A stretch of 64,000 nt of DNA from Candidatus Ryanbacteria bacterium CG10_big_fil_rev_8_21_14_0_10_43_42 (GCA_002793915.1 PFEF01000003.1:18854-82853), one strand, 5' to 3'. Counted from the stretch's first letter, positions 36,954 to 58,504 are shown. Made by a program: numbers and translations. Notes: a model not told the origin generated them from the letters alone.

Positions 36954-39491
36954 CTATAAAACAAAATTAATCAGCTTGTCCGGCACAAAAATTACTTTCC
37001 GTATCGTACCGGCATCCAAGAAACCCATTACGCGCTTTTCCTGGCGGACAAGTATTTCTGCCTCTTCTCGCGTACTCCCACGGGGCATTTCTATTGTGGC
37101 ACGTACACGCCCGTTTACCTGCACAACCAGGTTATAGGTTTCTTCCATAAGATATTTCTCATCATAAGCGGGCCACGTGGCTACATGAATACTTTTTTTC
37201 TCTCCGAGCATATGCCATAGTTCTTCCGTCATGTGAGGCGCGAACGGCGCTGTAAGCTTAAGCAGTATTTTTACATCAGATGCCGTTACATTATTCTTAC
37301 CCGCCTCAAACGCATTAAGTAAAATCATACATGCGCTAATTGCCGTGTTATATCTTAAATTGGCAATATCATCCGTAACTTTTTTTATAGCGGCGTGGGT
37401 ATCTTTTTCAAAAACACTCTTTTTTCCGGAATGCACATTATGCGAAAGTCGCCATATTCTTTCCAAAAAACGTGTAATCCCCAAAATACCCGTATCTTGA
37501 AAATCTCCCCCTTCCGCAAAAGGACCTAAAAACATAAGATACATGCGAAGAGCGTCCGCTCCGCATTTTTTTATATAATCATCCGGATTAACAACATTAC
37601 CCTTCGATTTAGACATCTTAGATCCTCCCTTAATAAGAAGTCCGTGAGCACGAAATTTCTGAAATGGCTCTTCAAACGTGATCATACCTCCGTCATAGAG
37701 AGCCATGGCAAAAAACCGCACATACAACAAATGTAGTACCGCGTGCTCCGCACCTCCTATATACATATCAACGGGAAACCATTTCTTTGTTATACCCTCA
37801 TGCCACGGCCTTTTTTTCTCCGTTTGTGAAGGATAACGCATATAATACCAGGCGGAATCGAGAAACGTATCCGATACATCCGTTTCCCGCCGCGCCATTT
37901 TTTTGCATTTTGGACATACAACCTCGTAAAATGATTTTACTGATGCAAGAGGAGATGTGTCATTTCCGGTGGGACGGAAATTTTTTATATTGGGAAGCAT
38001 AACCGGCAAGTCATTATTAGGCACCGTATACCATCCCGGCATATCCTTTCTTTCTCCCGCACCCTTTTCTTTGCATGACACGCAAAAAATCATAGGAATG
38101 GGCGGTCCCCAATATCTCTGTCGGGAAATGAGCCAATCACGTAAACGATATGTTATTTTTTTCTTTCCCTCTACGGCCTTGATAATTTTTGTTCTTGCCT
38201 CTAATGAATCCATCCCATCGTATGGACCGGAATTAACAAGCCGTCCATGGCCTACATATGCCTCATCATCATCCACAATACTTTTTCGAAGACGAACCGC
38301 CATGTCATCCGCAGTATCGGCATGTGCATCCGGTTCCACCACCGGAACAATATTAAGCCAATATTTTTTTGCAAAGGCAAAATCGCGCGTATCATGCGCC
38401 GGCACCGCCATAATGGCACCTGTTCCCACATGCCCCAACACATAATCGGCAACCCATACGGGAATAGGTTCCTTGGTTGCCGGATTAATCGCCCGAACGC
38501 CCTCCAATTCCACGCCCGTCTTTTCTACTTTATCCCGCATGCGATCCTCTTCCGATTTTTTCTTAGCAACCTTGATATACTCTTTTACTTCTTCTTCATT
38601 GTTAATATCCAGTTCATTATTCATGAGCAAAGGATGCTCCGGACCTATCACTAAAAACGTAGCGCCGAAAATCGTATCCGCCCGCGTTGTATAAACCTCA
38701 ATTGAAAGTTGAGAATGGGAAATGGGAAACTGAATCAGCGCACCTTCTGATTTTCCAATCCAATTTTTTTGTGCAATCTTAACTTTTTCAGACCAATCAA
38801 TTGTATCAATACCGGAAAGAAGGCGCTCCGCATATTTCGTTATCTTAAAAAACCACTGCTCCAATTCCTTTTTAATGACAATGGTATCACACCGCTCACA
38901 CTCACCGGCAATAACCTGTTCATCAGCAAGCACTGTTTTGCACGACGGGCACCAATTTACCACAGCTTTTTTTCTATACGCGAGTCCTTTTTTGAACATA
39001 ACGGTAAAAAGCCACTGCGTCCATCGATAATAATCCGGATCATATGTTTCCAACCGTTCTTTCCAGGCAAAGCCGTTTCCAATCATTTCAAGCTGTTTAT
39101 AAAAACGCTTTTCCGAAATTTTCGCCTGTGTTATGGGATGTGTTCCCACCTTAAGCGCGTAATTTTCCGAATGAATACCAAAACCATCCAAACCAATTGG
39201 CTCAAACACATCATATCCCTGCATACGCTTAAACCGTCCGTATACATCCGCTCCGGTAAATGCATACATATTCCCGACATGTAATCCTTCTGCCGAAGGA
39301 TACGGGAACATCATCAAATTATAAAAAGGATTTTTTGCCGTTTTTAGATTTGGTTCATATATGCCGGATGATGCCCATTTCTTCTGCCATTTCTTTTCTG
39401 TACGCGCATGATTATATGCCACTACTCGCTTTACCGAAGACCGTTTTTTAAGAGTTTTTTTTGGCAAGGATTTTACGCTCTTTTTTGACAT
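36954..39491 (-). CDS. leuS: leucyl-tRNA synthetase
   Basis: Class I aaRS: HIGH-like region (PYPSAEGLHVGNMYAF), KMSKS (GSKMSKSKGN), CP1 editing domain, Leu-specific C-terminal domain. 845 aa. Confidence 0.95.
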   Translation of the reverse strand: MSKKSVKSLPKKTLKKRSSVKRVVAYNHARTEKKWQKKWASSGIYEPNLKTAKNPFYNLMMFPYPSAEGLHVGNMYAFTGADVYGRFKRMQGYDVFEPIGLDGFGIHSENYALKVGTHPITQAKISEKRFYKQLEMIGNGFAWKERLETYDPDYYRWTQWLFTVMFKKGLAYRKKAVVNWCPSCKTVLADEQVIAGECERCDTIVIKKELEQWFFKITKYAERLLSGIDTIDWSEKVKIAQKNWIGKSEGALIQFPISHSQLSIEVYTTRADTIFGATFLVIGPEHPLLMNNELDINNEEEVKEYIKVAKKKSEEDRMRDKVEKTGVELEGVRAINPATKEPIPVWVADYVLGHVGTGAIMAVPAHDTRDFAFAKKYWLNIVPVVEPDAHADTADDMAVRLRKSIVDDDEAYVGHGRLVNSGPYDGMDSLEARTKIIKAVEGKKKITYRLRDWLISRQRYWGPPIPMIFCVSCKEKGAGERKDMPGWYTVPNNDLPVMLPNIKNFRPTGNDTSPLASVKSFYEVVCPKCKKMARRETDVSDTFLDSAWYYMRYPSQTEKKRPWHEGITKKWFPVDMYIGGAEHAVLHLLYVRFFAMALYDGGMITFEEPFQKFRAHGLLIKGGSKMSKSKGNVVNPDDYIKKCGADALRMYLMFLGPFAEGGDFQDTGILGITRFLERIWRLSHNVHSGKKSVFEKDTHAAIKKVTDDIANLRYNTAISACMILLNAFEAGKNNVTASDVKILLKLTAPFAPHMTEELWHMLGEKKSIHVATWPAYDEKYLMEETYNLVVQVNGRVRATIEMPRGSTREEAEILVRQEKRVMGFLDAGTIRKVIFVPDKLINFVL

Positions 39492-39589
39492 ATATCAACG
39501 GTACCCAAAAATAAGAGTTTTGGGTACTTGACTTTATATAATAAATATGGTTTTAATACATATCATATTAATTATTCAGGAGGTGTGTT

Positions 39590-42214: not shown

Positions 42215-43783
42215 TTATCCGATACGAGGGAACATCTGTTCCCGTTCCTTGATTGTATACTCATTTTGATCTGAAGGAATGCCTTCCTTATCCACACCAA
42301 GCATGGCACGGATAGACGCGCTCGTTTGCGGCATAAATGGAAGTAATGCATATGCCACCGTATCAATACCTCTAAGAAGCTGCCATAATACCACCTGTGT
42401 TTTTTCCTTGTCCGTCTTAATAAGCTTAAACGGTTCGTATGTTTGAATATATTTATCCATCATATGAATGATCCCCCAAACGATGTTCATCGCCTCGTTA
42501 AGACGATATGTTTGCATGTGTTCATGATACAATGGCAGTATACTGCGCTCCACCTCGTACAATAAACTTGTTCCTTCCACCGAAAGATGCTCTCCCTTTG
42601 CATGAATAAACGCAATATCAGAAACAAGAGGTGCTGTAGTAAGAAGATCATCTGCCGGCTTTGCGAGATATCCTTCAAAATACGCTTCAACCATCTTTGT
42701 AACACGACTCACCACATTCCCCAGCCCGTTTGCCAAATGAGCATTATATGCTTCCGTAAAACGATCTTCCGTAAAATCACCATCTTCAAATGTGGGAATT
42801 TCCCGCAACAAAAAATACCGGAGCGAATCAACGCCATACTTATCGATGAACGAAAAGGGATCTATGACGTTCCCCAAAGACTTGGACATTTTTTTTCCTC
42901 CCGAATTAATAAACCCATGCGCCATTACACGCTTCGGAAGCGCAATGCCCGCGGACAAAAGCATACCCGGCCATATAAGTGCGTGAAAGCGCAGAATATC
43001 TTTTCCGATTACATGCATGTCGCACGGCCAATACGTTTCGAGTTGTTTCGTATTGTTTTCGCCAAATCCCAGAGCGGTTATGTAATTTGAAAGCGCATCA
43101 CACCACACATACATTGTTTGCGTATTATCTCCCGGCACCGGCACTCCCCATGATATGTCTTTGGCAGGACGCGAAAAACTTACATCTTCAAGTCCTTCAT
43201 TTAAAAAGGTGAGCATTTCATTTTTACGAAAACTCGGTATAATTTCAAGCTCCCCCGATTTGATACGTTTTTTTATTTCTCCGGTATACCGAGAAAGCCG
43301 AAAAAAATAATTTTCTTCCTCCACATCTTCGGGCTCCTTTCCATGATCCTGACACACACCATCCACTAGATCTTTTTCCGTAATAAATGCCTCGTGTCCC
43401 ACACAATACAATCCCCGATAAGACGCCTTATATATATCTCCCGCCTTTTCAAGACGGCGCCATAATTCCTGTGCTCCTGGCCAATGACGCTCCTGATCGG
43501 ACGTACGGATATATGCCGTATGCGACGCATGCACCTTATCCGCCAATGCGGTAAATAAAGAAGCGTGCTCATCAACAAATTCTTTTGGAGACTTGCCAGC
43601 TGATTCCGCGGCACGGGCGATTTTTGCTCCATGTTCATCCGTTCCTGTAAGAAAAAAAACATCGTCCCCCTGAAGACGCCGGTAACGCGCGATTGTATCC
43701 GCCTGTAAAAGCTCCATTGCATATCCCACGTGCGGAGGTGCATTTACATATGCAATGGATGTTGTTATGTAAAATTTACTCAT
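42215..43783 (-). CDS. metG: methionyl-tRNA synthetase
   Basis: Class I aaRS: HVGYAMELLQADTIARY (HIGH region), KMSKSLGN. 522 aa (no C-terminal tRNA-binding extension). Confidence 0.95.
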   Translation of the reverse strand: MSKFYITTSIAYVNAPPHVGYAMELLQADTIARYRRLQGDDVFFLTGTDEHGAKIARAAESAGKSPKEFVDEHASLFTALADKVHASHTAYIRTSDQERHWPGAQELWRRLEKAGDIYKASYRGLYCVGHEAFITEKDLVDGVCQDHGKEPEDVEEENYFFRLSRYTGEIKKRIKSGELEIIPSFRKNEMLTFLNEGLEDVSFSRPAKDISWGVPVPGDNTQTMYVWCDALSNYITALGFGENNTKQLETYWPCDMHVIGKDILRFHALIWPGMLLSAGIALPKRVMAHGFINSGGKKMSKSLGNVIDPFSFIDKYGVDSLRYFLLREIPTFEDGDFTEDRFTEAYNAHLANGLGNVVSRVTKMVEAYFEGYLAKPADDLLTTAPLVSDIAFIHAKGEHLSVEGTSLLYEVERSILPLYHEHMQTYRLNEAMNIVWGIIHMMDKYIQTYEPFKLIKTDKEKTQVVLWQLLRGIDTVAYALLPFMPQTSASIRAMLGVDKEGIPSDQNEYTIKEREQMFPRIG

Positions 43784-43833
43784 TATATTTTTAACGCTTT
43801 GTCGAAAAATATTTTTTATCGAGCGTATTTCCT

Positions 43834-44892
43834 CTAATTCTCAAATATATGCTTATCGCGAGCAACATCGTTAACGTACTCAACTATGGCGGCCGCTATA
43901 GGAACAGCAAGCACAAAACCCACCACTCCTCCCAATTTTCCTCCTATAAGAAGAGCAATAATAACCAAAAGCGGTGGTACTCCCACGGCTCTTCGCACTA
44001 CGAGAGGATAAATCAAATGATTTTCCATTTGCTGAACGATAACGTAAAGAACAATAACCCACAACCCCAAAATAGGTGCTTGTATGACGGCTAGCAAAAC
44101 GCTCGGGATAGCGGCCATAATAGGTCCGAAAATAGGAATAAGCTCAAATATTGCGGCAATGACCGCAAGCACAAGGGCATATTTTACTCCCAAAAGCGCG
44201 AGTCCGATATATACCAACACCCCCACCATCACGCCCAGTAAGAGTTGTCCCTGAAGCCACTTCCCTATTTTATGCTGTGATCTGCGCCATAAATCAATAA
44301 CGTACGCCTCATGTTCCTTTGGTGCAATAATTTTAAGCACATTAGCAATACCATTTTCCTGTACCGCAAAATAAAAAGATAACACAATAACAAGCACAAA
44401 AGAAAGAGCGCCTCCGAACAAAGAAGATCCTAATGAAGATGTCAGCGAGAAAAATGATCCGATATTCTCATTAACGAATGTATTTAAGTTATCAGTTACG
44501 CTTTCCGCCGGCACCGATATATATTCGGGCGCATACGAAAAAATAAAACTTGCCCGCCCACGCAATTCTTCCAGAGTATCTTCAAGGGATACCGGAAAAG
44601 CCAAAGAAAAATTCTGTACCTCGTTTACTAAAGGCGGCACAATAAGATAAAAGGCAAATGCGAGCAAGGATGCCGTAAGAAAATAAACAGCAAGAACCGC
44701 AAGTACCCGCGGAAAACGAAATCTGCTTATAAAGGAATGGATGCCCGGCTCAATAGCGGATGCAATAACAATAGATAAAAGCAAAATAACAACAATATCG
44801 CGCACAACATACAAAAGCGCCAATCCCAATAAAATAAGAACTGTCTTAAAAATAGTCCATGTGGACACTTCTATTAATTTTCGCTCAATCAT
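43834..44892 (-). CDS. AI-2E family transporter (PerM/UPF0118 permease)
   Basis: Multiple transmembrane helices and the family C-terminal signature LVVRRAVGVPPLLVIIALLIGGKLGGVVGFVLAVP. Start set at MIERK (44892), after the stop of the upstream gene; the ORF-track start is 45006. Confidence 0.7.
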   Translation of the reverse strand: MIERKLIEVSTWTIFKTVLILLGLALLYVVRDIVVILLLSIVIASAIEPGIHSFISRFRFPRVLAVLAVYFLTASLLAFAFYLIVPPLVNEVQNFSLAFPVSLEDTLEELRGRASFIFSYAPEYISVPAESVTDNLNTFVNENIGSFFSLTSSLGSSLFGGALSFVLVIVLSFYFAVQENGIANVLKIIAPKEHEAYVIDLWRRSQHKIGKWLQGQLLLGVMVGVLVYIGLALLGVKYALVLAVIAAIFELIPIFGPIMAAIPSVLLAVIQAPILGLWVIVLYVIVQQMENHLIYPLVVRRAVGVPPLLVIIALLIGGKLGGVVGFVLAVPIAAAIVEYVNDVARDKHIFEN

Positions 44893-47840: not shown

Positions 47841-49748
47841 TTACTGCACAACTTTATATTCGGTACCGTCGACTAAGGGATCATCCCGAAGAGTTGTACT
47901 TACTTCGCCGCGGTTTTCCGCAATAGGCGTATCCGTAAATATATCATGTCCTTCAAAGCGTGCTTCCGTTATAAGCGCCGGTTGAGATCCGACATGATTT
48001 TGATTAGGAACAAGTCCTACCTGAAAGGAAACTTCGCGTGCCGGCCTTGTGAACCCGGTTCCGGCAACGAGAAATCCGACATCCCACATAATGCGTCCCG
48101 TATTGGAATTATATGTTATTTTTTCATTTGCCGGATTGACAACATTCTTCCATCGCACGTAAGCCGGCAAGCTCGATTCTACAACCCCGTTTTCGACATC
48201 GTTTGATACATTGGTAAGCGACCAGGTGATGGTATATGTCGTTTCCTCTCCTACGCGTGGGGGCATAGGTCCTCCGTTCGGAATAACACCGCTACGATGC
48301 AGTCCTTTACTGACAAAATCCACACGCGTTATAAATGAAGCGGAAAGACTATCGGTACCGGTAATATCAACTCCTTCGTATCCCTCGGGAACAAAGTTGG
48401 AATAAATACGTGCACGGGCAGAAACGGTAAAGTTTTTGTCTCGAATAGATTGAACACTTGGATTTTCAACCGTACCCACCGAAAACGTAAATGACCCTGA
48501 CTCTCCGGGATCCAAAAACTCAAGCCGCGGATCGGTGGATGCATTAACTAAAACACGCTTATTCACGCCATCATATGAACCTCCCTCCACACTTACATTT
48601 CCGTAGTTAAACTGCTCCCCCTCCAGAATAACTTCAATCAAAGCATTTTGGACACTCACCGGCAAGTTATTCCGCCACGGTACACTAAAAACAATAATAC
48701 CACCCGGCGTTATCTTCACGTTATTCTCGCCCCCCACCAACAAATCGACTGAAAGAAGTGCTTCGCGTATGTGCACATTATGTGATGCGCGGGCGTAAGT
48801 GTTCCATGCTTTTGTTTCTTCGTCAAAAATACCTATTTGTGCTTCAAAAAAATGAGAATCAAGCGGATTTCCTGTAAGAATCCCGCGCACCGTTATAGTA
48901 CCCTCCGCATCAGGTTCTAGCGCTCCTATATGCCAAATGGAGTTATCGATACCGGGCGCAGGCACAGCAGAAATCATTGAAAAATTATCGGGATAACGTA
49001 TTTCAAGCGATACATCCTCAAACGCGCTTTCCCCCGTGGAAACATAATCGATCGTAAGCTCAACTTCCTGCCCGTTATTTATCTCTTCTGGTACGGAAAT
49101 CGTGATGCCGATCGGAGACTTATTAACCATAACGAGAGCACTCGTATCTTTTCCGAAACGAGCACTTGTGTTTTCCGGACGATACTCAAGCGTAGCATCC
49201 GCCTTTACGGAAACACCTTCGTCACCAAACACAAATGCTTCAAAACGCTCCTCTCCCTCCCCACCAGGCAAGAGCCGCCCAATGGGTATGCGTTCGCGAA
49301 AGCGACCGCGGCGCGGCGCTTCTCCAAACACCGGACGTGCGCCATCCGGATATTCAAAAATAAGCTCCACGCTTTCAAGTGCCACTTCGTTGCGGTTAGC
49401 ATACCGTACTTCAAACGTAACGTGCTCACCCGCGGCAATTGTCTCGGGCGAGAGTATGGTAAGTTCAATATTGTCTGCTGATATATTCCCTTCATTATTA
49501 AGAAAAATAAACGTCGCCACACCACCAGCAAGCACAAACACAAGAAGAGTCATCATGCTCCAAAAGATTGTGCGCGTGTGACGACGCTTCTTTTGTTCTC
49601 TTCGCTCCTCTATGACGCGCGGATCACTGTCCCCTCCCCACGTACGTACTCCTCCCGAATATGCCGGACTTAAGTCCGGTTCTCCTCTTCGTTCGGGAAA
49701 TGTTTCATTTGGCTTAAATAATCGTTTTTTTAAATCATCAAGTGCCAT
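47841..49748 (-). CDS. large hypothetical membrane-anchored extracytoplasmic protein
   Basis: 635 aa. Basic cytoplasmic N-terminus, a single transmembrane helix (IFWSMMTLLVFVLAGGVATFIFL), then about 560 aa of beta-rich repetitive domain. No catalytic motif. Confidence 0.6.
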   Translation of the reverse strand: MALDDLKKRLFKPNETFPERRGEPDLSPAYSGGVRTWGGDSDPRVIEERREQKKRRHTRTIFWSMMTLLVFVLAGGVATFIFLNNEGNISADNIELTILSPETIAAGEHVTFEVRYANRNEVALESVELIFEYPDGARPVFGEAPRRGRFRERIPIGRLLPGGEGEERFEAFVFGDEGVSVKADATLEYRPENTSARFGKDTSALVMVNKSPIGITISVPEEINNGQEVELTIDYVSTGESAFEDVSLEIRYPDNFSMISAVPAPGIDNSIWHIGALEPDAEGTITVRGILTGNPLDSHFFEAQIGIFDEETKAWNTYARASHNVHIREALLSVDLLVGGENNVKITPGGIIVFSVPWRNNLPVSVQNALIEVILEGEQFNYGNVSVEGGSYDGVNKRVLVNASTDPRLEFLDPGESGSFTFSVGTVENPSVQSIRDKNFTVSARARIYSNFVPEGYEGVDITGTDSLSASFITRVDFVSKGLHRSGVIPNGGPMPPRVGEETTYTITWSLTNVSNDVENGVVESSLPAYVRWKNVVNPANEKITYNSNTGRIMWDVGFLVAGTGFTRPAREVSFQVGLVPNQNHVGSQPALITEARFEGHDIFTDTPIAENRGEVSTTLRDDPLVDGTEYKVVQ

Positions 49749-49823: not shown

Positions 49824-50438
49824 CTACGCGTAATCTTCCGGACGCCATACTCCCGCATATGCATATATGTCGCGCAAAAATAAACGCGTAGTTATTTCTT
49901 CCTGCCTGGTAAGAACATCTGAAGAAATGAGCGTGGGAGCATTATATAATCTGTCGACTGCTTCAGTACGGTCATCAGGCATATACCCCAAAAGTGCCAC
50001 CATCTTTACCTGGAACGCATATAACAACAATGATCCCTCGCGTGTTTCGTATTTATCGCTATTTATAACCCGAAACGCTTCTTTTATAAGTTGCCATATA
50101 CGCGCGTCTTGTTCCTCATCCACCATAAGATGCATCGCGATGCGAGCTACTGCCGTTGCCGCACGAAACCGGCTCATGGTATTTCGTATAGACCCGAAAG
50201 GTGTTCGCGTTTCCGCCGAAACTAACCGGTATTGTTCACGGCCCGCAATAAACGACAATGCCACATGCGTAAATAATTCCACATGACCCCGAAGTTTTGA
50301 TTTTTCAAGTCGAATACCTTTAGCATATATGGAGAGCATTCCATATTTTTCCGTATATACACGCATACGGATATCAGCTTCGCCACGTGGATATACGGCA
50401 AGTACAAGAGCGTCCGTTTGATGTATATCATAAGACAT
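49824..50438 (-). CDS. recO: DNA repair protein RecO
   Basis: N-terminal OB-fold region DALVLAVYPRGEADIRMRVYTEKYGMLSIYAKGIRLEKSKLRG typical of RecO. 204 aa. Confidence 0.85.
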   Translation of the reverse strand: MSYDIHQTDALVLAVYPRGEADIRMRVYTEKYGMLSIYAKGIRLEKSKLRGHVELFTHVALSFIAGREQYRLVSAETRTPFGSIRNTMSRFRAATAVARIAMHLMVDEEQDARIWQLIKEAFRVINSDKYETREGSLLLYAFQVKMVALLGYMPDDRTEAVDRLYNAPTLISSDVLTRQEEITTRLFLRDIYAYAGVWRPEDYA

Positions 50439-50458: not shown

Positions 50459-53400
50459 TTATTCCTTCTCAATACGCACATATACACCTTTCGTCCGCAA
50501 CTCTTGCATACCATCGGCATGCTCTGCAAATGAAACCGTATGCGCTCCCACAGCTTTCGCAATATCATCCACCCCTCTCGTTAAAGCCTCCATTTCTGCA
50601 TCCGCATACAATACGATATGTATTGCGTCATTCGGTTGCATGCCCTCCCTTTTTCGTAAATCTTGTATGTCGCGCATAACCTCACGCCAAAGTCCTTTCA
50701 TGCGAAGATTATCCGTTAACTCCGTATCCAAAACACAATCTTCCGTCATTTCGATATGTTCCGCGAGTGATTCTATATTCGTCCGCTCACGAATAATGGC
50801 TCGGAATGATTCTTCTTCCGGAAGCTCTCTTACTGTTGCCTTTGAGAGTGGCTGTCGCACTGAAATACCCGCCATGCTTCTGCTAGCAAGAATGTGCTCT
50901 ATGGCTGACCGCGTTATTTTCATTTCCTGATTTGTCTTTTCATATTTCTCTCCCGGAACAGCGGAGGGCCACTCTTCCAAGTGCACCGACTCTTTTCCGT
51001 TTTCATCTTTGATATCCTGATATATATATTCAGCCGCGAAGGGCGCGAAGGGCGCCAGTATTTTTGCAAATACAAGGAGTGCATAGTGAAAATACTCCAA
51101 AGCGCACACTCTTTCTTCCGCCCCCTCCCGAAACCTATCCCGTGAATACTGCAAATATATCGTTGAAAACATATCCACAAAATCGGCAAGGAGACGCACG
51201 GCGCGATCAAGGCGGTACTGCTCCATAGCATGCATCACGTTTTTCTCTGTTTGCATGAGATTATACACAAGATACTGATCCAGTACATGAGCATTCATAT
51301 CAAAAAGCGGCTCTTTTACGGTATGGGTCCGATACAGATTATAAAAGGAAACCATATTAACGAGACGTGCGATAACTTTTTTAGCCGTTTCGTCCACCCC
51401 TTTTTCCGAAAAATGAAGATCTTCGGCACTAACTGCCGGTGACATAAGAAAATATAAGCGAAGCGCATCGGCTCCGTACCGGGAAATCACCTCCATCGGA
51501 TCCGGATAGTTCTTGAGGCGCTTGGACATTTTCTGTCCATCCTCCGCTAAAATCGTTCCATTTACCAATACCTGTTTATATGCCGGTTTTTCGAAAAGCG
51601 CGGTTGCCAAAACGTGTAACGAATAAAACCATCCGCGTGTCTGGTCCAGTCCCTCGGCAATATAATGAGCCGGATATCCCTTATTATTCTTCGGATCGAA
51701 TATATCCGTATTTTCAAACGGATAATGTTGCTGTCCGTAAGGCATAGATCCCGATTCAAACCAACAATCAAATACTTCAGGAATACGCTTCATCACACCC
51801 CCGCACGAACACGCAAGCACAATATCATCCACGAACGGTCTATGCATATTAAGCCAACCACGCTCATCGTAGGGGAAATTCCGCACATGAAGCGGACGCA
51901 ATTCTCCCTGCTTAATATAATGCCGTCTCTCGCCAAGCCATTTATCAAGAGCGCGTTCCGGCAAAACATAATCCATAGACGCCTCAAGAACCCACAATGG
52001 ATCTCCGTGACTCACAATAAGAATACGCTTTCCCTCATGTTTTTTATCAATATCCCGTACTGCGTTTACCATACGCTCTTGCACATCATGTAAAGACTCC
52101 CCTCCCTTTGGCGCATTCGCAATACGGTTATGATGATCATTACCGAAATATGCCAGATATTCACGTACTTCCTTCCCCTCAAATTCCGTACCATGCCTTA
52201 GTTCCCTTAGACGTTCGTCATATACAATTTTTGCTCCCGTTATATGCGCTACAATTTCCGCCGTCTCGCGCGTGCGCACGAAGTCGGATGCGTAAATAAC
52301 ATCCACTCCTCCATCTTTCAGTAATTGCCGGGCTATGTTACTAATATCGTTTTTTCCTTTGTCCGTCATATGAATGGGAGCCTCGGGATCATGCGTAATT
52401 TTTACATACTTCACGTCCGAAATACCATTACCTGAGCCATCCAAATCATTACGCTCTCCGTGACGCAAAACAAAAAAAGTATTGGCTTTTGTAATACGCC
52501 TCTCTTCCAGTTCGACAAGCGAACCTACCACGTGTATGTCTTTACACTTCTCGCATCGCCATACCGGCAAGGGCGCTCCCCAATAACGACTCCGCGAAAT
52601 AGACCAGTCTGGCGCCGTTTCAAGACCTCTGCCAAACCTCCCCTCCTTTAAGTGTTCCGGTGACCATACAATATCTTTATTTGCCGCAATAAGATTTTCC
52701 CGAATGGACGGTACATTCACAAACCATGAGTTTGCGGCATAATTAAGAAGCGGTGTATCACATCTCCAGCAAAACGGATACGAGTGAGTAATTTTCTTTT
52801 TTGCAAACAATACTCCTGTATGTGCCAAGTGCTTTATAATTTCTATATCAGTTTTTTGATGATCATCTTTCGGTTTCACCGGTAAACCCGCAAAGTCCCG
52901 TATATCATCCACAAAGCTACCATCTCCCTTTACATGCTGAACGAACGGTAAATGATGTTTCTTGCCCAACTGCATATCTTCATCTCCAAATGCGGGTGCA
53001 ATGTGCACAACACCAGTACCTTCGTTGGTTGTTACAAAATCACCCGCATATATTTTCCAACCGTTTTCCCCATCCGGCAAATCTTTTTGTTTAATGTAAT
53101 AATCAAATACCGGCTTATATGCACGACCTACTAATTGTGCTCCCGGCACTTCGTCGATAATTTCATATTCCCCTTCAATAACATCTTTTATGAGATCCTT
53201 AGCAAGATAAAACACCGGATCATCATTAGCATGATCCGTCCCGTATTCCGATGTTGCCACATCGGCGCGCCTTTGTACCTTTGCGTAGATAATATCAGGA
53301 TGTACCGCAAGCGCCACATTTCCGGGCAATGTCCAGGGCGTCGTTGTCCATGCAAGCACAAAAGCGCCCTTTTCATCCGCGAGTTCAAATTGCACGGTGA

Positions 53401-54013
53401 CAGAAATATCCGTAATGTCTTTATATCCCTGACTTACTTCAAAATTTGCAAGTGTTGTTTCGCATCGCGGACAGAGATGCATCGACTTATATCCCTCATA
53501 AATAAGTTGTTTATCGTAGAGCGTTTTAAAAATCCACCATACCGATTCCGTATACGTTGGATCCATTGTCCGATAATCGTTTTCCATATCCACCCAGCGA
53601 CCAATACGAGGAATAATACGTCGCCAATCATCGGCATACCGAAGAACCGTTTCTTCGGCACGGCGGTTAAACTTAGCAATACCGTATTCTTCAATTTCCT
53701 TCTTATGCGTAAATCCTAATTCCTGTTCAATAATATTCTCGAGCGGAAGACCATGACAGTCCCATCCCCATCTTCGCGGCACATAACGTCCGCGCATGGT
53801 CTGATAACGCGGAATAACATCTTTAAGGACGCTCGCCAAAATATGCCCGTAATGCGGAAGGCCGGTAGCAAACGGCGGACCGTCATAAAATACAAATTCT
53901 TCTTTATTTTTCGTCTGTTCCAAGCTTTTCTCAAAAATCTTATGCTCACGCCAAAAAGCGAGAATTTCCTCTTCTCGCTCCGCTATCGTTTTTTTCGCCT
54001 GTTCGTCTGCCAT
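50459..54013 (-). CDS. ileS: isoleucyl-tRNA synthetase with an inserted histidine-phosphatase (PGAM-like) domain
   Basis: Class I aaRS: PHYGHILAS (HIGH), CP1 editing domain, KMSKRLKN (KMSKS), type-2-like segment RPFVDDIVLACSCGGVMKRIPEVFDCWFESGSMPYG. Between WRCEKCKD and LNMHRPF (about aa 498-722, nt ~51850-52500) sits a ~220-aa insert with VLRHGERNDL...DVIYASDFVRTRETAEIV...RLRELRHGTEFEG...GGESLHDVQERM...ILIVSHGDPL, i.e. the RHG and SHG motifs of the histidine phosphatase superfamily. Confidence 0.9.
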   Translation of the reverse strand: MADEQAKKTIAEREEEILAFWREHKIFEKSLEQTKNKEEFVFYDGPPFATGLPHYGHILASVLKDVIPRYQTMRGRYVPRRWGWDCHGLPLENIIEQELGFTHKKEIEEYGIAKFNRRAEETVLRYADDWRRIIPRIGRWVDMENDYRTMDPTYTESVWWIFKTLYDKQLIYEGYKSMHLCPRCETTLANFEVSQGYKDITDISVTVQFELADEKGAFVLAWTTTPWTLPGNVALAVHPDIIYAKVQRRADVATSEYGTDHANDDPVFYLAKDLIKDVIEGEYEIIDEVPGAQLVGRAYKPVFDYYIKQKDLPDGENGWKIYAGDFVTTNEGTGVVHIAPAFGDEDMQLGKKHHLPFVQHVKGDGSFVDDIRDFAGLPVKPKDDHQKTDIEIIKHLAHTGVLFAKKKITHSYPFCWRCDTPLLNYAANSWFVNVPSIRENLIAANKDIVWSPEHLKEGRFGRGLETAPDWSISRSRYWGAPLPVWRCEKCKDIHVVGSLVELEERRITKANTFFVLRHGERNDLDGSGNGISDVKYVKITHDPEAPIHMTDKGKNDISNIARQLLKDGGVDVIYASDFVRTRETAEIVAHITGAKIVYDERLRELRHGTEFEGKEVREYLAYFGNDHHNRIANAPKGGESLHDVQERMVNAVRDIDKKHEGKRILIVSHGDPLWVLEASMDYVLPERALDKWLGERRHYIKQGELRPLHVRNFPYDERGWLNMHRPFVDDIVLACSCGGVMKRIPEVFDCWFESGSMPYGQQHYPFENTDIFDPKNNKGYPAHYIAEGLDQTRGWFYSLHVLATALFEKPAYKQVLVNGTILAEDGQKMSKRLKNYPDPMEVISRYGADALRLYFLMSPAVSAEDLHFSEKGVDETAKKVIARLVNMVSFYNLYRTHTVKEPLFDMNAHVLDQYLVYNLMQTEKNVMHAMEQYRLDRAVRLLADFVDMFSTIYLQYSRDRFREGAEERVCALEYFHYALLVFAKILAPFAPFAAEYIYQDIKDENGKESVHLEEWPSAVPGEKYEKTNQEMKITRSAIEHILASRSMAGISVRQPLSKATVRELPEEESFRAIIRERTNIESLAEHIEMTEDCVLDTELTDNLRMKGLWREVMRDIQDLRKREGMQPNDAIHIVLYADAEMEALTRGVDDIAKAVGAHTVSFAEHADGMQELRTKGVYVRIEKE

Positions 54014-54125: not shown

Positions 54126-54171
54126 TAAAAAACACCAGGTAAAAAACCGTGTTTTTACCTGGTGTTTTTTA
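54126..54171. terminator. bidirectional rho-independent terminator (13-bp stem ACACCAGGTAAAAA / TTTTTACCTGGTGT flanked by A6 and T7)
   Basis: Lies between the argS stop and the ileS start. Serves argS on the minus strand. Confidence 0.6.
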
Positions 54172-54213: not shown

Positions 54214-55938
54214 TTACATTTCTTCAGGGGCATCTATTCCTAAAAGATATAATCCTTTTTTAAGAGTAGTTGCCGCCGCATCCACCAATGCCAAACGAAA
54301 CTGCCTGATCTCTTCATGTTCTTCCGTCAGAACAGGACATGCATGATAAAAATCATTTGTAGTCTTAGCAAGCACAAATACATATCCGGCAATGATGTGT
54401 GGTGCGTAATCGGCGAGCGCATCCGTAATCGCCTCCGGGAAACGTAAAATCCGCACCACGAGCGCACGTTCTTTTTCTTCCATCTTTACCGTGTTCGGAA
54501 GTGAGATTTTCGAAGATTTTGCTTTGCGTAAGATGCTTTTTAACCGCGCATGCGTGTACTGAATATATGGTCCGGTATCTCCATCGAATGATAGAGCGTT
54601 ATCCCATGTAAATACGATATCGGATTTTCTGTTATGCGAAAGATCAAAATACTTTATTGCTCCTATACCCACCTGATGCGCAATCGTATCGGCCTGCGAA
54701 AGATCCGGATTTTTTTCATCAATAATGGCGCGCGCCCGATCATACGCCTCGTCAAACAGTGCATCCAGCGCAATAACCGTTCCCTTTCGCGTACTCATAG
54801 ATCCTTCCGGAAGGCGCATCTCGCCGTAAGAAACATGCTCTGAAACCCCCGCGTCATTATATCCCAACAAATCCGCCACCCGAAACACCTGCCGAAAATG
54901 ATATTCCTGACGCACATCCACTACATATATATTTTTCCAAAAACGCCATTGTTTCTTCCTATATGCAATAGTGGCAAGATCACGCAATAAATAAGTGGAT
55001 GCGCCATCCGACTTACGAAGTACCGCTTCTCCCAACCGTTCCCCTGTAAGATCAACCAAAACAGCCCCTTCCACATTTTTTGCAACACCTTTCGTAATTG
55101 CTTCATCAACAATCCGCGCCATATCATTTTCATATGCCGACTCTCCCTTATGCTCATCAAAGGGAAGAAGATCTAATCGATGCGCCCCCTCCTCCAGTTT
55201 TTTCATGGAAACGGCTACCATCCATTGCCAAATGTCCCTGTTTTCCTTATCCCCTCTTTCCAGCTTCGCAAATTCCGCTTTCGCGCGTTCCCGCCGTTCG
55301 GGCTCCTCTTCTATTTTTTTATTCTCTTTTTTGTATATATCCTCAAGAAATGCGAACGGATCTTCCGCAATGCGCGGCTTTATATCATCCGTTATATTCT
55401 CTTTATATGCAAGGAGCAATATACCAAATTGCGTTCCCCAATCTCCCACATGCGTATCCGACACCGCATGATATCCCCCTGCGGCAAACATGCGCTTCAA
55501 CGCATCGCCAATAATACCGGTACGCATGTGTCCTATATGTGGGCGCTTTGCGATATTAAGCTGAAAATATTCAACGACAACTGTTTTTCCAGCTCCCGCC
55601 GTACTGGTACCCCATGTTTCTTTTTTCTCCAAAACACCCTCCGCAAGCTCTCGCATTAAGAAAGCATCCGCAAGAAAGAAATTTACAAATCCCGGAGCCG
55701 CCGCCTCTGCACACCACATATCATTTGTCAGTTTGCTCGCAAGCTCATTTGCAATATCCATCGGACTTTTTCTCAAGGAATCCGCAAGAAGAAGTGCTAC
55801 ATTTGTGGCATAATTTCCGTGAGACACATCGTCCGGCTCCGACACAGAAAAAACCGGCATATCTCTTTCCGGCGCATCTACTATCATGGTGTGTACGGCC
55901 TCTTCAAGACATGCCCGAATTTGATCGCGTATCGTCAT
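54214..55938 (-). CDS. argS: arginyl-tRNA synthetase
   Basis: Class I: N-terminal add-1 domain, PHIGHMRTGIIGD (HIGH), catalytic core, C-terminal DALR anticodon-binding domain. 574 aa. Confidence 0.9.
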   Translation of the reverse strand: MTIRDQIRACLEEAVHTMIVDAPERDMPVFSVSEPDDVSHGNYATNVALLLADSLRKSPMDIANELASKLTNDMWCAEAAAPGFVNFFLADAFLMRELAEGVLEKKETWGTSTAGAGKTVVVEYFQLNIAKRPHIGHMRTGIIGDALKRMFAAGGYHAVSDTHVGDWGTQFGILLLAYKENITDDIKPRIAEDPFAFLEDIYKKENKKIEEEPERRERAKAEFAKLERGDKENRDIWQWMVAVSMKKLEEGAHRLDLLPFDEHKGESAYENDMARIVDEAITKGVAKNVEGAVLVDLTGERLGEAVLRKSDGASTYLLRDLATIAYRKKQWRFWKNIYVVDVRQEYHFRQVFRVADLLGYNDAGVSEHVSYGEMRLPEGSMSTRKGTVIALDALFDEAYDRARAIIDEKNPDLSQADTIAHQVGIGAIKYFDLSHNRKSDIVFTWDNALSFDGDTGPYIQYTHARLKSILRKAKSSKISLPNTVKMEEKERALVVRILRFPEAITDALADYAPHIIAGYVFVLAKTTNDFYHACPVLTEEHEEIRQFRLALVDAAATTLKKGLYLLGIDAPEEM

Positions 55939-55985: not shown

Positions 55986-57500
55986 TCACCGTTCCTCACC
56001 GCGCACTACGTCCATCGCCGTAAGACCACCTTCATCTTCGCAAACAACGACTGCATCTTTCTCTTTTGTGCCGGAAGATGAATCAGATATAACCACTTCC
56101 TCCACCCATGCATGCGTACCAAGATCCGCCCCTTCATTAAGAGAGCACCTATCAGCATTAAGTGCGGTGTATAATGTAAAAAATGTACAAAGACCGTTCT
56201 CACGGCATGCTATAGTTCCCGTTGTATCCGAAAATACCTGCGTTGTACGCACAAAAGACGTGCATCCCGCACAAGGAGCGGGTACGGACAGCACGGATCC
56301 ACCCGATACCGCCGTTTTAATATCCACCCGTGGCACCCCTGATCCGCCAAGGCGTTCAATAATATAATACCCGCGTCTTTGTAAATTTTCTCGATCCGGC
56401 TCAAGTACAACACCTGCCAAGTCCAGCGTTACCGCAATCTGCTCACTTACACCGGTAAGAGAAGCTGATTCATCCGCACATCGTATAGTGTAAACGGTGG
56501 GTACCGCATCAAGTGCTACCAATTCCCGTGCCGTATCCGAAGTTGTGTATACTTCTCTCATAGGAAGCAGTACATGTGCATGTCCGGAACCCGGCAAAGC
56601 GGAAAATACAAATGTCGTATCATTGAACGGTCGATAGGGAACGGGTATAAAATCGGGTGGAGGATTTTTTACTAAATTTGGTTCCGAAAGCCATGTATAT
56701 TCATCCTCAAAAGCCGAACGTGCGGTTAACAAGCACGAATCGGCAGACGATCGCCACTCGAGAGATGCAACCATTCCCGTAAACGAACTGCGACTCACTG
56801 TGCGCGTAAGGGTAAACGGCTCCCCCACATCATATGTGCGGATAATATGCTTTTGATCTGATGGTCCTCTATAAAGAAGCTTGGAAACAACGCGACCGGT
56901 TCGTATAGGCAAAGGTGCATCGCGCCCGTCCGGATCCATTCCGAACTCAAGCGGATGAGCGCGTTCATCCGTACGGTTATCCAATCCAAATGATTGGAGT
57001 ATGTAATTATTTCCCGTACATGATGTGTCCGTGCACCCGCATTTCCACTCTCCGCCAAACCAACTACATGCGTACACCGCCAGATAATTAACACCTTCCC
57101 TTATCATGTCTGCCGGAATGTCCCCCGCGGCGCGTCCTGTGATCCATTCCGAATCCTTATCGTCTTTTTCACCGGTAAGCGTAATTTCTTCCCATTCTTT
57201 CACATTCTCTTCATCTACTGATGCACGTTCCGTTAATATAAATGCCTTCTCCCACACGGCAACAGGCGTAGTGCTTTCACCCGCAATTATCACCTCTACC
57301 GTTTGGTCCGTATTACATAAAATGGTAATTAAAAGCTCCTGCACCTGTGAAAACATATGCACCACCGGCGCAAAATCTTCTTCCGTATCAAGGAAAGATG
57401 TTTTATGGTGGCAAGCCGCCGAAGATTGTGCGTTCGTAAAAGCGCCCCCCCATCCCATTACTACGCTCACCGCAAAAGCAAAAAAGAGCATATACTTCAT
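55986..57500 (-). CDS. secreted cysteine-rich hypothetical protein
   Basis: Signal peptide MKYMLFFAFAVSVVMGWGGAFTNA (start set at 57500). About 500 aa with many Cys (CSWFGGEWKCGCTDTSCTG). No known motif. Confidence 0.6.
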   Translation of the reverse strand: MKYMLFFAFAVSVVMGWGGAFTNAQSSAACHHKTSFLDTEEDFAPVVHMFSQVQELLITILCNTDQTVEVIIAGESTTPVAVWEKAFILTERASVDEENVKEWEEITLTGEKDDKDSEWITGRAAGDIPADMIREGVNYLAVYACSWFGGEWKCGCTDTSCTGNNYILQSFGLDNRTDERAHPLEFGMDPDGRDAPLPIRTGRVVSKLLYRGPSDQKHIIRTYDVGEPFTLTRTVSRSSFTGMVASLEWRSSADSCLLTARSAFEDEYTWLSEPNLVKNPPPDFIPVPYRPFNDTTFVFSALPGSGHAHVLLPMREVYTTSDTARELVALDAVPTVYTIRCADESASLTGVSEQIAVTLDLAGVVLEPDRENLQRRGYYIIERLGGSGVPRVDIKTAVSGGSVLSVPAPCAGCTSFVRTTQVFSDTTGTIACRENGLCTFFTLYTALNADRCSLNEGADLGTHAWVEEVVISDSSSGTKEKDAVVVCEDEGGLTAMDVVRGEER

Positions 57501-57592
57501 GTATATAGTATACGGTACGATCAAAAAATAATCACCTAATAAAATAACATACTCTATTTTATATTTGTCAATATTATGATATACTGTTTCGT

Positions 57593-58072
57593 ATGATTAC
57601 TCTTGCTGTAAATCGGAGAGCGCGATTCGACTTTGATATCCTGGAAACATTCGAAGCGGGATTGTCTTTGCATGGATATGAAGTAAAGTCTGTAAAAATG
57701 GGGCGTGCGAGTATTGGAGGAGCGCATGCCATTATTCGCGGCGAAGAAGCCTATATTATAGGCATGCAAATACCGCCCTACCAGCCGGATAATACCCCTG
57801 ATACATACGATCCGTCTCGTACGAAGAAGCTTATTCTAAAAAAAGCGGAAATTCGTTCTCTTATAGGAAAAATTATCCAAAAAGGCTTGACTTTAACCCC
57901 CATTCGAGTGTATACTAAGCGTGGTCTTGTAAAGATGGAGCTCGGTCTTGCACGCGGAAAAAAGAAAGAAGATAAACGCCAAAAAATCAAAGAACGAGAT
58001 GCGAAACGCAAAATTGAGCGGACTCTTAAAACAAGAATGCAGATAACAGGGGGACGTCGGGATTCGACGTAG
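57593..58072 (+). CDS. smpB: SsrA-binding protein SmpB
   Basis: 159 aa. Conserved RRARFDF..ETFEAG...GYEVKSVK...IPPY and a basic C-terminal tail. The stop (58070-58072) lies 23 nt inside the predicted tmRNA 5' end. Confidence 0.9.
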   Translation: MITLAVNRRARFDFDILETFEAGLSLHGYEVKSVKMGRASIGGAHAIIRGEEAYIIGMQIPPYQPDNTPDTYDPSRTKKLILKKAEIRSLIGKIIQKGLTLTPIRVYTKRGLVKMELGLARGKKKEDKRQKIKERDAKRKIERTLKTRMQITGGRRDST

Positions 58073-58415
58073 TATCCCGGTACATATACTAATCAGGCAG
58101 AGCGCAACCTCTTAAAACTACGAAATAGATAAGTGCAAACTTATTCAAAAAAGCGTTCGCACAGCCAGCAATGGCGTTGGCGTAACGCTTTCCGGGGTTC
58201 GATCTTGCTCTTTAGCAAGACATCCCGGACATCGATAAGATTCACGTCCGTACGATCTTATTTCGGTGTTATATCATCGGACTCGATGATTCCGACTGCT
58301 TGATACGAATCATGACATAAATCAGGCACCCCTTTTGTGCTTCGGCACAGAATAATACCTGTAACAGTTAGATATGTGCCCTCTACGGACGGGAGTTCAA
58401 CTCTCCCCGTCTCCA
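58050..58415 (+). ncRNA. ssrA: tmRNA (ssrA)
   Basis: 5' GGGGACGUCGGGAUUCGACG (tRNA-like acceptor/D). 3' GGACGGGAGUUCAACUCUCCCCGUCUCCA (T-arm plus acceptor pairing with the 5' end, discriminator A). Internal tag reading frame 58135-58185, GCAAAC...GCGTTGGCGTAA, encodes ANLFKKAFAQPAMALA followed by a stop. Confidence 0.85.
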
Positions 58416-58504
58416 CAAGTTTTGCCACCTTTTGCCAAGAGCAAAATAGTTGCAAAACTTAATACACTACACCCGCAAAGTTTAGTGTATACATTGTTTA
58501 AGTT

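Follow-up and report, generated by a model that had tools for sequence, protein, structure and literature searches.

A histidine phosphatase domain nested in the CP3 region of isoleucyl-tRNA synthetase in Candidatus Ryanbacteria and other Patescibacteria

Introduction

Additional domains have been described in class I aminoacyl-tRNA synthetases (aaRSs). In cyanobacteria, the CAAD domain is found in ValRS, IleRS, LeuRS, GluRS, ArgRS, MetRS, and CysRS (PMC4893482), and an isoleucyl-tRNA synthetase (IleRS) with a GNAT domain is a recognized class (NF040702, ileS_w_GNAT). As for phosphates that interfere with tRNA charging, it is known that toxSAS toxins pyrophosphorylate the CCA ends of particular tRNAs and thereby block their charging, and that small alarmone hydrolases (SAHs) reverse this modification (10.1101/2021.04.30.441581, PMC11559606). 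Here, I analyzed the ileS gene in a 64,000-nucleotide stretch of DNA (hereafter, the window) of Candidatus Ryanbacteria bacterium CG10_big_fil_rev_8_21_14_0_10_43_42 (GCA_002793915.1, PFEF01000003.1:18854-82853). An initial annotation, made from the sequence alone, had proposed that the encoded IleRS carries a PGAM-like histidine phosphatase domain inserted between its WxCExC zinc knuckle and its LHRPF...CWFESGS segment.

An association of IleRS or ValRS with a phosphatase was not found described or interpreted in full-text searches, which included IleRS combined with histidine phosphatase, phosphoglycerate mutase, or His_Phos_1, and the synthetase domains of the candidate phyla radiation (CPR). 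What is already known is that automated Pfam annotation in public collections flags PF00300 on these proteins. A whole accessory enzyme inside the catalytic core of a synthetase is rare, and the synthetases are among the best-studied bacterial enzymes.

Results

A complete phosphatase domain replaces a short loop in the CP3 zinc knuckle

The ileS gene (50459..54013, minus strand) is an intact open reading frame (ORF) for a 1184-aa protein, which as a whole scores 860.4 bits against the NCBIfam model TIGR00392 (cut-off 621.4). In Pfam, the tRNA-synt_1 domain (PF00133) of this protein is split in two around a His_Phos_1 domain (PF00300, aa 515-678, E 1.1e-28, 100.7 bits against a gathering cut-off of 21.7). 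The proposal of an inserted PGAM-like domain is thus confirmed, and the profile searches place the segment in PF00300 and not in an IleRS-specific insertion with a mere chance resemblance to RHG motifs. When the protein was aligned to the IleRS2 of Priestia megaterium (8C8U), residues 6-504 corresponded to chain residues 6-476 and residues 721-1106 to chain residues 486-868, so that the insertion point could be fixed on a reference IleRS. The 216 residues in between (aa 505-720, 51854..52501, minus strand) stand in place of 9 residues of 8C8U, in good agreement with the roughly 220 aa first estimated near nt 51850-52500. They comprise the Pfam core followed by a C-terminal helix, a strand, and a linker, and were identified with PF00300, AlphaFold2 (AF2), Foldseek, and phmmer as a branch-1 histidine phosphatase domain. 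Insert-less IleRSs have 6-10 residues between 'GS..EL' and 'DLHRP'; the insert explains the length of 1184 aa, as had been supposed.

The domain names used here follow the IleRSs of Candida albicans and Saccharomyces cerevisiae, in which the CP3 (connective peptide 3) subdomain spans residues 473-534 and 459-526, respectively (PMC7191050, PMC7955072). Residue 504 of the window protein aligns to about residue 497 of C. albicans IleRS. The insert interrupts the zinc-knuckle part of CP3 between the Cys pairs C487/C490 (in WRCEKC, aa 485-490) and C735/C737 (in CSCGG, aa 735-739), which presumably correspond to the second zinc site of Thermus thermophilus IleRS. The CWFESGS motif follows at aa 750-756. 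In the yeast enzyme, the CP2-CP3 linker (ARDWNVSRNRYWG) lines the reveromycin A pocket and borders the pocket of the tRNA CCA end, reveromycin A occupying the tRNA-binding site (PMC7955072). The corresponding linker of the window protein, APDWSISRSRYWG (aa 466-478), stops 27 residues ahead of the insert, a closeness in sequence only. The GC content is even across both borders of the insert, with no break, and both insert-host junctions have block pLDDT values of 92 or more in the full-length AF2 model.

The host is a type-2 IleRS

The bit score against 8C8U (type 2) is 720 and that against 1FFY (type 1) is 295, and the C-terminal DUF5915 domain (aa 1073-1180) stands in place of the type-1 zinc-binding domain. 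Residue conservation was counted in an alignment of 117 homologues. In the class I motifs HYGH (aa 54-57) and KMSKR (aa 828-832), residues H54, G56, K828, and K831 are invariant, and the motifs WTTTPWTLPGN and GTGVVHIAPAFG of the CP1 editing domain are invariant or nearly so. Two structures solved for the editing domain by itself, 1WK8 and 1UE0, correspond to aa 196-413. Using the same alignment, AF2 modeled the whole protein with a pLDDT of 92 and a pTM of 0.87. The part before the insert (aa 1-504, 52502..54013, minus strand) includes the first Rossmann half with HYGH, the CP core, the CP1 editing domain (TTTPWT, GTGVVH), and CP2, as well as the CP2-CP3 linker and the first zinc knuckle mentioned above. 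The part after the insert (aa 721-1184, 50459..51853, minus strand) includes the CP3 hairpin (LNMHRPFVDD) with the second zinc knuckle, the second Rossmann half with CWFESGS and KMSKR, the anticodon-binding domain (Anticodon_1, aa 912-1058), and DUF5915. Judging from these motifs, the gene is predicted to encode a functional type-2 IleRS capable of aminoacylation. No ileS paralogue was found within the 64-kb window.

Two special classes of IleRS were considered and rejected. The NCBIfam exception models for the mupirocin-resistant IleRSs MupA and MupB gave 680-690 bits against a cut-off of 1900, and the model for IleRS with GNAT (NF040702) gave 316 bits against 1999, Pfam detecting no GNAT domain in the window protein.

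The insert belongs to no named phosphatase subfamily and keeps an intact active site

Modeled alone, the insert has a pLDDT of 92.3 and a pTM of 0.90. In Foldseek, the best matches were the phosphoserine phosphatase PspA of Hydrogenobacter (4IJ5/4IJ6), PhoE (1H2E), the glucosyl-3-phosphoglycerate phosphatase Rv2419c, and TIGAR, with the mutases next; the probability was 1.00 for PspA, PhoE, Rv2419c, TIGAR, and the cofactor-dependent phosphoglycerate mutases (dPGMs). The phmmer comparison of the insert with PhoE gave an E-value of 3e-14 and 32% identity. Despite these matches, no NCBIfam equivalog model reached its cut-off. The scores were 58 against 350 for PspA (NF045917), even though 4IJ5/4IJ6 are the best structural matches, 57.8 against 225 for dPGM_arch, 53.3 against 261 for GpmB, 24.7 against 316 for PRK01295, 61.4 against 162.9 for the alpha-ribazole phosphatase CobC (TIGR03162), and 36.6 against 250 for PRK15004. 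Thus, the domain is a member of the histidine phosphatase superfamily but belongs to no named functional subfamily.

These scores bear directly on the idea that the insert is the glycolytic cofactor-dependent mutase of the cell, fused to IleRS. It shares the PGAM superfamily with the mutases, and dPGM structures are among the Foldseek matches. However, the dPGM and GpmB models fall far short, the domain has about 200 aa like the phosphatases and not 230-250 aa like the mutases, and the best matches are phosphatases while the dPGM alignments have higher root-mean-square deviations. A glycolytic mutase is therefore very improbable.

The residues expected for catalysis in a branch-1 histidine phosphatase were all found. 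R517-H518-G519 (RHG, 52457..52465, minus strand; H518 being the predicted phospho-accepting nucleophile) is invariant in 117/117 homologues. The second phosphate-binding Arg, R580 (52274..52276, minus strand), corresponds to PhoE R59 in 'SGRALETAE' according to phmmer and is present in 116 of the 117. E604 (52202..52204, minus strand), the predicted general acid/base, corresponds to PhoE E83 ('DERLREI'), and the second catalytic His, H669 (52007..52009, minus strand), to PhoE H151 ('LIVTHG'); both are found in 117/117. In total, R517, H518, G519, E604, E639, R647, and H669 are invariant in the alignment. The His/Arg/Glu set is therefore intact. The hallmark motifs listed in the initial annotation are present where they were reported (RHGE at aa 517-520, a second RHG at 606-608, GGES at 637-640, and SHG at 668-670), but neither the second RHG nor the Gly of SHG is a constant feature of the family, whose consensus is RExNxG at the former site and SH[E/G] at the latter. 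The true hallmarks at these places are E604 and H669. A lineage-specific loop of 10 aa (aa 528-537, 52403..52432, minus strand) lies in columns that are gapped in 83-85% of the 117 homologues; it is common to about 15% of them and has the lowest pLDDT in the insert (block means 74 and 81).

Among the 117 homologues, the insert has a mean pairwise identity of 42%, compared with 63% for the host. The insert thus evolves faster than its IleRS host and yet retains the catalytic residues, and this drift around a fixed catalytic set suggests that the active site is under purifying selection. It is very likely that the domain is real, conserved, and catalytically competent; H518 is the predicted nucleophile, the phosphate would be bound by R517, R580, and H669, and the proton would come from E604.

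Alternatively, the domain may be a ligand sensor or a structural module, which would bind a phosphorylated metabolite or stabilize or enlarge CP3 and tune IleRS allosterically without turnover. In favor of this idea, the confident AF2 junctions suggest a rigid packing on the synthetase, and in the cyanobacterial analogue the removal of CAAD affects catalysis little. On the other hand, the nucleophile His, the acid/base Glu, and the phosphate ligands are conserved (116/117 for R580 and 117/117 for the rest) at an identity of only 42%, and the same set recurs in free-standing forms and in the additional copies described below, a pattern typical of an active site that works. I therefore regard a sensor or structural role as improbable, and the suggestion of a catalytically dead insert, which the initial annotation had also raised, is disfavored.

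IleRS with the CP3 insert is widespread in Patescibacteria

A full-length protein with 100% identity (P0121, annotated as a hypothetical protein and present on 2 contigs) is derived from a Candidatus Ryanbacteria metagenome-assembled genome of the CG10 groundwater series. PF00133 and PF00300 occur together in all 120 top-ranking full-length homologues. These are 48-62% identical to the window protein, mostly have 1150-1235 aa, and are labeled as Sung-, Vogel-, Pace-, or Parcubacteria, or Paceibacterota. In a pattern scan of GTDB species genomes with the insert alignment and the C-terminal IleRS flank, 80 IleRS loci were listed, a sample and not a census. The insert is present in 35 of these loci, 4 have a separate phosphatase gene directly upstream, and 41 have neither; the last state was found among the listed matches in Treponema, Firmicutes, Falkowbacteria, Absconditabacterales, Saccharimonadales, and others. 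With the profile of the insert, 418 cluster representatives were found at E <=1e-30 among 1.84 billion. The L032 locus, once taken for a decayed remnant of the insert, turned out to be a masked run of N.

An assembly chimera or a sequencing artifact, which the unusual length might suggest (nothing more than the length does so), is refuted by these results. The reading frame is continuous and the composition even, AF2 models the whole chain confidently, an identical protein is publicly deposited, and the same architecture occurs in more than 100 independent assemblies and in at least 35 GTDB species genomes. Thus, the architecture is clade-wide; it is neither rare nor an artifact.

The phosphatase also exists as a separate gene beside ileS

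The nearest free-standing relatives of the insert have about 190 aa and are 36-40% identical to it. Seven free-standing homologues, chosen by their similarity to the insert alone, were looked up. Six of them lie directly upstream of an insert-less ileS, at distances ranging from a 4-nt overlap to a 64-nt gap, while the seventh lies 1.6 kb upstream of ileS. The gene order argS-X-ileS-recO-DUF11, as in the window, is usual for those six loci. Four further split pairs were found among the GTDB loci listed. The cultured species Minisyncoccus archaeiphilus PMX.108 is one of the organisms with the split form (L034 2983-6527, NZ_AP038758.1); its gene for a 195-aa phosphatase overlaps the start of a 986-aa ileS by 4 nt. 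In another split locus (L084 5241-5904), a MazE/PIN toxin-antitoxin pair lies between argS and the free-standing phosphatase gene.

The catalytic set is also kept in the free-standing forms, which are strongly basic. Their median isoelectric point (pI) is 9.9 and their net charge +18, while the pI is 6.1 for the inserts and about 5.8 for the IleRS cores. Background ORFs in these loci have a pI of 8.0-8.6. This difference in charge is what one would expect if the free form bound the acidic synthetase, or tRNA, non-covalently, a contact for which there would be no need once the two are fused. In a neighbor-joining (NJ) tree, the free-standing type with 'RHGET.YQ' forms one clade (90% bootstrap), and the deep nodes are poorly supported. 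One free form (P0094) retains the C-terminal linker motif of the inserted type, a hint of fission for this protein at least.

When two proteins are fused in some lineages and encoded as a tight operonic pair in others, this is a classical sign of functional linkage. Since the phosphatase is either inserted in IleRS or encoded by a directly adjacent gene in relatives, the two proteins probably work together.

Phosphatase domains recur at other sites and in ValRS

Peregrinibacteria and Peribacteria have IleRSs of 1465-1487 aa with two His_Phos_1 domains in CP3 (2 stretches in Pfam, 280 bits). One is at the same site as in the window and the other takes the place of the second CP3 zinc knuckle. 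Examples are the loci L047 (PFDV01000004.1, Peregrinibacteria), L037, L042, and L035 and the proteins P0339, P0329, P0332, and P0371. Three further sites were found in IleRS (P0269 and P0321), one following CWFESGSMPY, one preceding FPADFIAEG, and one where the anticodon-binding domain begins.

I found that ValRS is affected as well (P0241 and P0387-P0504; Gracilibacteria, Peregrinibacteria, and relatives). The ValRS P0241 has four His_Phos_1 copies. Among the 119 other ValRSs listed in a search with P0241, 70 carry 1-3 copies. The usual site lies between WWGHRIPVWYDE and LRQDEDTLDTWFSSALWP, after 'IPVWYDE', and is the homologue of the CP3 site of IleRS; another lies after 'SPQWF'. The catalytic set is also kept in the second, third, and fourth copies. 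The ValRS inserts show no clear derivation from the IleRS inserts. The LeuRS and MetRS encoded in the same window have no phosphatase insert.

Other domains have also entered these enzymes. In the IleRS P0355, the editing region houses an IS200-like Y1_Tnp domain, and a C-terminal GNAT domain is present alongside the CP3 phosphatase; the ValRSs P0410, P0445, and P0419 have DUF559 (PF04480) or HU (PF00216) in frame. The class Ia synthetases of Patescibacteria look like hot spots of domain capture.

Discussion

A possible role in aminoacylation

The preferred picture is that the CP3 zinc-knuckle loop of IleRS hosts a complete PhoE-like phosphatase of about 200 aa, which would be a dedicated partner of IleRS, either covalently or, in the split form, by a non-covalent association with the acidic synthetase or its tRNA. 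It would hydrolyze a phosphomonoester through a phospho-histidine intermediate, and the substrate would be tied to aminoacylation and not to central metabolism. The leading guess is a 2′/3′-phosphorylated or pyrophosphorylated acceptor end of tRNA, which could not be charged as long as the phosphate is in place; in this scheme, tRNA binding would fall to IleRS and repair to the phosphatase. The next candidate for the substrate would be a nucleotide such as AMP.

The guess of a tRNA end was made because the phosphatase is coupled to tRNA-binding enzymes, because its free form is basic, because the linker at the CCA pocket is near in sequence, and because toxSAS provides a precedent. It is weakened by the nearest solved structures, which are those of small-molecule phosphatases, and by the lack of an explanation for the restriction to Ile and Val. 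I rate a tRNA end as an unlikely answer, although it is the leading one.

Several points weigh against a dedicated role in aminoacylation. The nearest solved structures are phosphoserine phosphatase, PhoE, and glucosyl-3-phosphoglycerate phosphatase, not phosphatases of nucleic acids or proteins. The adjacency of the split genes could have been inherited from fission or fusion rather than selected, and the NJ trees settle neither the direction (insertion or fission) nor the number of transitions. At the two insert-less valS loci examined, there is no phosphatase neighbor. Why a need for repair should be limited to tRNA-Ile or tRNA-Val is left without explanation. Finally, the unrelated domains inside patescibacterial IleRS and ValRS (IS200-like Y1_Tnp, GNAT, DUF559, and HU) mean that the class Ia synthetase loops of Patescibacteria may simply be tolerant of insertions.

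The last point leads to the main rival, an independent housekeeping phosphatase, broad-specificity or metabolic, that was captured via co-expression, genome compaction, and a permissive CP3 loop. Such a capture would suit not only the unrelated captured domains but also the metabolic nature of the nearest structures (PspA, PhoE, Rv2419c, TIGAR, and dPGM) and the faster evolution of the insert relative to its host, and cyanobacterial CAAD is a case in which the product of a neighbor gene was recurrently captured by class I aaRSs with catalysis unchanged (PMC4893482). However, all seven free-standing homologues looked up are at ileS, although their genomes diverged deeply, and the stop codon of one gene often overlaps the start codon of the next. 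The repeated independent gains concern only the sister enzymes IleRS and ValRS, the main ValRS site being topologically equivalent to CP3, while the LeuRS and MetRS of the same window were spared. Moreover, small-molecule enzymes do not usually have a net charge as high as the +18 of the free form. A housekeeping phosphatase is thus the less likely explanation, to be taken more seriously than any other rival.

A dedicated partner of IleRS could also act on protein. A protein phosphatase would remove a regulatory or toxin-installed phosphate from IleRS itself, for instance from the KMSKS loop, or from a partner. By analogy, HipA phosphorylates GltX and HipT phosphorylates TrpS, and branch 1 includes the protein phosphatases SixA, PGAM5, and Sts-1. 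The tight physical coupling to one synthetase would fit the synthetase as the substrate. Against this, no kinase partner was seen in the conserved neighborhood, the listed NCBIfam matches of the window protein do not include SixA, the cap region is kept as in small-molecule enzymes, and several copies per synthetase are hard to square with self-dephosphorylation. Such a function would be as improbable as that of a sensor.

Taken together, a functional coupling of the phosphatase to IleRS is rather likely. The clade-wide, recurrent, split-or-fused pattern argues for a real link to isoleucine and valine charging; the association extends across a major uncultivated radiation, has arisen anew at several sites and in both of the sister synthetases, and has a two-gene version with translational coupling. 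The complete reading, an active phosphatase in a functional type-2 IleRS up to and including its coupling to aminoacylation, is tentative, its chance falling a little short of even. A broader version is doubtful and offered as a speculation: the class Ia synthetases of Patescibacteria may have a third catalytic site besides those of synthesis and editing, located at CP3 or on a basic subunit, which would clear a 2′/3′-phosphate or pyrophosphate from the tRNA acceptor end, or some other phosphate that blocks charging, ahead of aminoacylation, so that a tRNA-repair or anti-toxin step would have arisen convergently in IleRS and ValRS.

If the substrate is tRNA or a nucleotide, a new activity would be added to the synthetase repertoire, with a bearing on how translation is protected in ultra-small, host-dependent bacteria. 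If it is a metabolite, this would be a striking case of essential genes capturing domains as genomes are reduced. Direct tests are feasible, as the proteins are soluble single chains and the cultured M. archaeiphilus with its split form is a practical experimental system.

Gene neighborhood

The conserved upstream neighbor of ileS is argS for arginyl-tRNA synthetase (54214..55938, minus strand; Pfam Arg_tRNA_synt_N, tRNA-synt_1d, and DALR_1), and the conserved downstream neighbor is recO (49824..50438, minus strand; Pfam RecO_N and RecO_C). The order argS-(phosphatase)-ileS-recO was also found in L001, L084, L085, L089, L090, and L091. Next to recO, a 635-aa protein with a DUF11 domain and an N-terminal hydrophobic segment is encoded (47841-49748, minus strand); its place after recO is conserved among relatives. 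On the other side of argS, a 512-aa protein (55986-57524, minus strand) has no Pfam match. The genes for LeuRS (897 bits), MetRS, ArgRS, and tmRNA lie at 36957-39494 (minus strand), 42218-43840 (minus strand), 54214-55938 (minus strand), and 58050-58418 (plus strand), respectively. LeuRS, MetRS, ArgRS, and IleRS are thus encoded within 20 kb, with tmRNA just past them, and only IleRS has the phosphatase.

Between argS and ileS, a near-perfect inverted repeat (ACACCAGGTAAAAA..TTTTTACCTGGTGT, 54132-54165) is flanked by T runs and looks like a bidirectional terminator, although a scan for consensus terminators did not flag it. The matches to -35 and -10 elements of ileS, at 54093-54064, are weak. 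No riboswitch or T-box was found upstream of ileS with Rfam.

The closest syntenic relative found is L001 4337-7857 (ENA ERZ25039480 contig_65275, 733 kb), which has 62% identity in the N-terminal half. Its IleRS is broken over frames 2, 3, 1, 3, and 1, due either to indel errors of long reads or to its being a pseudogene. In L002 4423-8016 (GCA_027024305.1, JALVSO010000054.1), and also in L003, an IleRS with the same insert was found; that of L002 has 10 in-frame TGA codons. At least six of them fall at positions where the window IleRS has a conserved Trp (in WGWDCHG, PDWSISR, LPVW, QTRGWF, and others). Thus, the L002 organism seems to read UGA as Trp (as in code 4) and not as Gly (code 25), and the gene calls in databases are fragmented there as a consequence.

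Comparison with known systems

For the leading guess on the substrate, there is a functional analogy in the repair of tRNA 3′ ends. The Escherichia coli CCA-adding enzyme has an HD-domain phosphatase and takes part in tRNA 3′-end repair. There, as with SAH, a phosphohydrolase restores a chargeable 3′ end. The likeness goes no further, the HD and SAH folds being unrelated to that of the insert, and no histidine phosphatase is known to act on tRNA ends.

The closest solved structures to the insert are those of PhoE/YhfR of Geobacillus stearothermophilus (1H2E/1EBB) and of Hydrogenobacter PspA (4IJ5), with Foldseek E-values from 4e-13 to 1.5e-11 and TM values of 0.64-0.72. They share the Arg/His/Arg/Glu/His set, a short cap, and a length of about 200 aa with the insert. 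In contrast to it, PhoE and PspA are free-standing, acidic, dimeric metabolic enzymes without linkage to a synthetase, and the sequence of their cap differs.

The bifunctional RNase H/acid phosphatase of the Rv2228c type (NF005567) likewise combines a branch-1 histidine phosphatase with an enzyme of nucleic acids. Of the NCBIfam phosphatase models, it gives the insert its highest score (80 bits, far under the cut-off of 326). That protein is an end-to-end fusion with RNase H as the partner, unlike the nested domain described here, and no clear physiological link between its two halves is known.

As to the host, the type-2 IleRSs of P. megaterium (IleRS2, 8C8U/8C8V) and T. thermophilus (1ILE) are its best matches (E 5e-215; Foldseek E 8e-89). 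It shares with them HIGH and KMSKS, the CP1 editing domain, and the DUF5915 C-terminus, and the CP3 zinc knuckle is as in T. thermophilus. The difference lies in the approximately 9 residues of these references, for which the window protein has its 216-aa phosphatase. The NF040702 class is similar in that an IleRS is combined with an accessory enzyme domain, and P0355 bears both its C-terminal GNAT and the CP3 phosphatase; the accessory domain and its position differ from those in the window protein.

The CAAD-bearing aaRSs of cyanobacteria are the closest described phenomenon. The insert is not a CAAD domain; no CURT1/CAAD sequence with two transmembrane helices is present, and the insert has a soluble alpha/beta fold matched by PF00300 only in Pfam. 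Unlike CAAD, the phosphatase insert is an entire enzyme whose active site is intact, and it further differs in being located in CP3 of the catalytic domain, in being present in up to four copies, and in occurring in Patescibacteria. The likeness is one of evolutionary pattern only. In both systems, a stand-alone family was recurrently and independently inserted in monomeric class I synthetases, mostly ValRS and IleRS, within a restricted clade, and in both, the stand-alone gene adjoins the synthetase gene in relatives of a fused form, as gltX-curt1 does for one of the CAAD fusions (PMC4893482).

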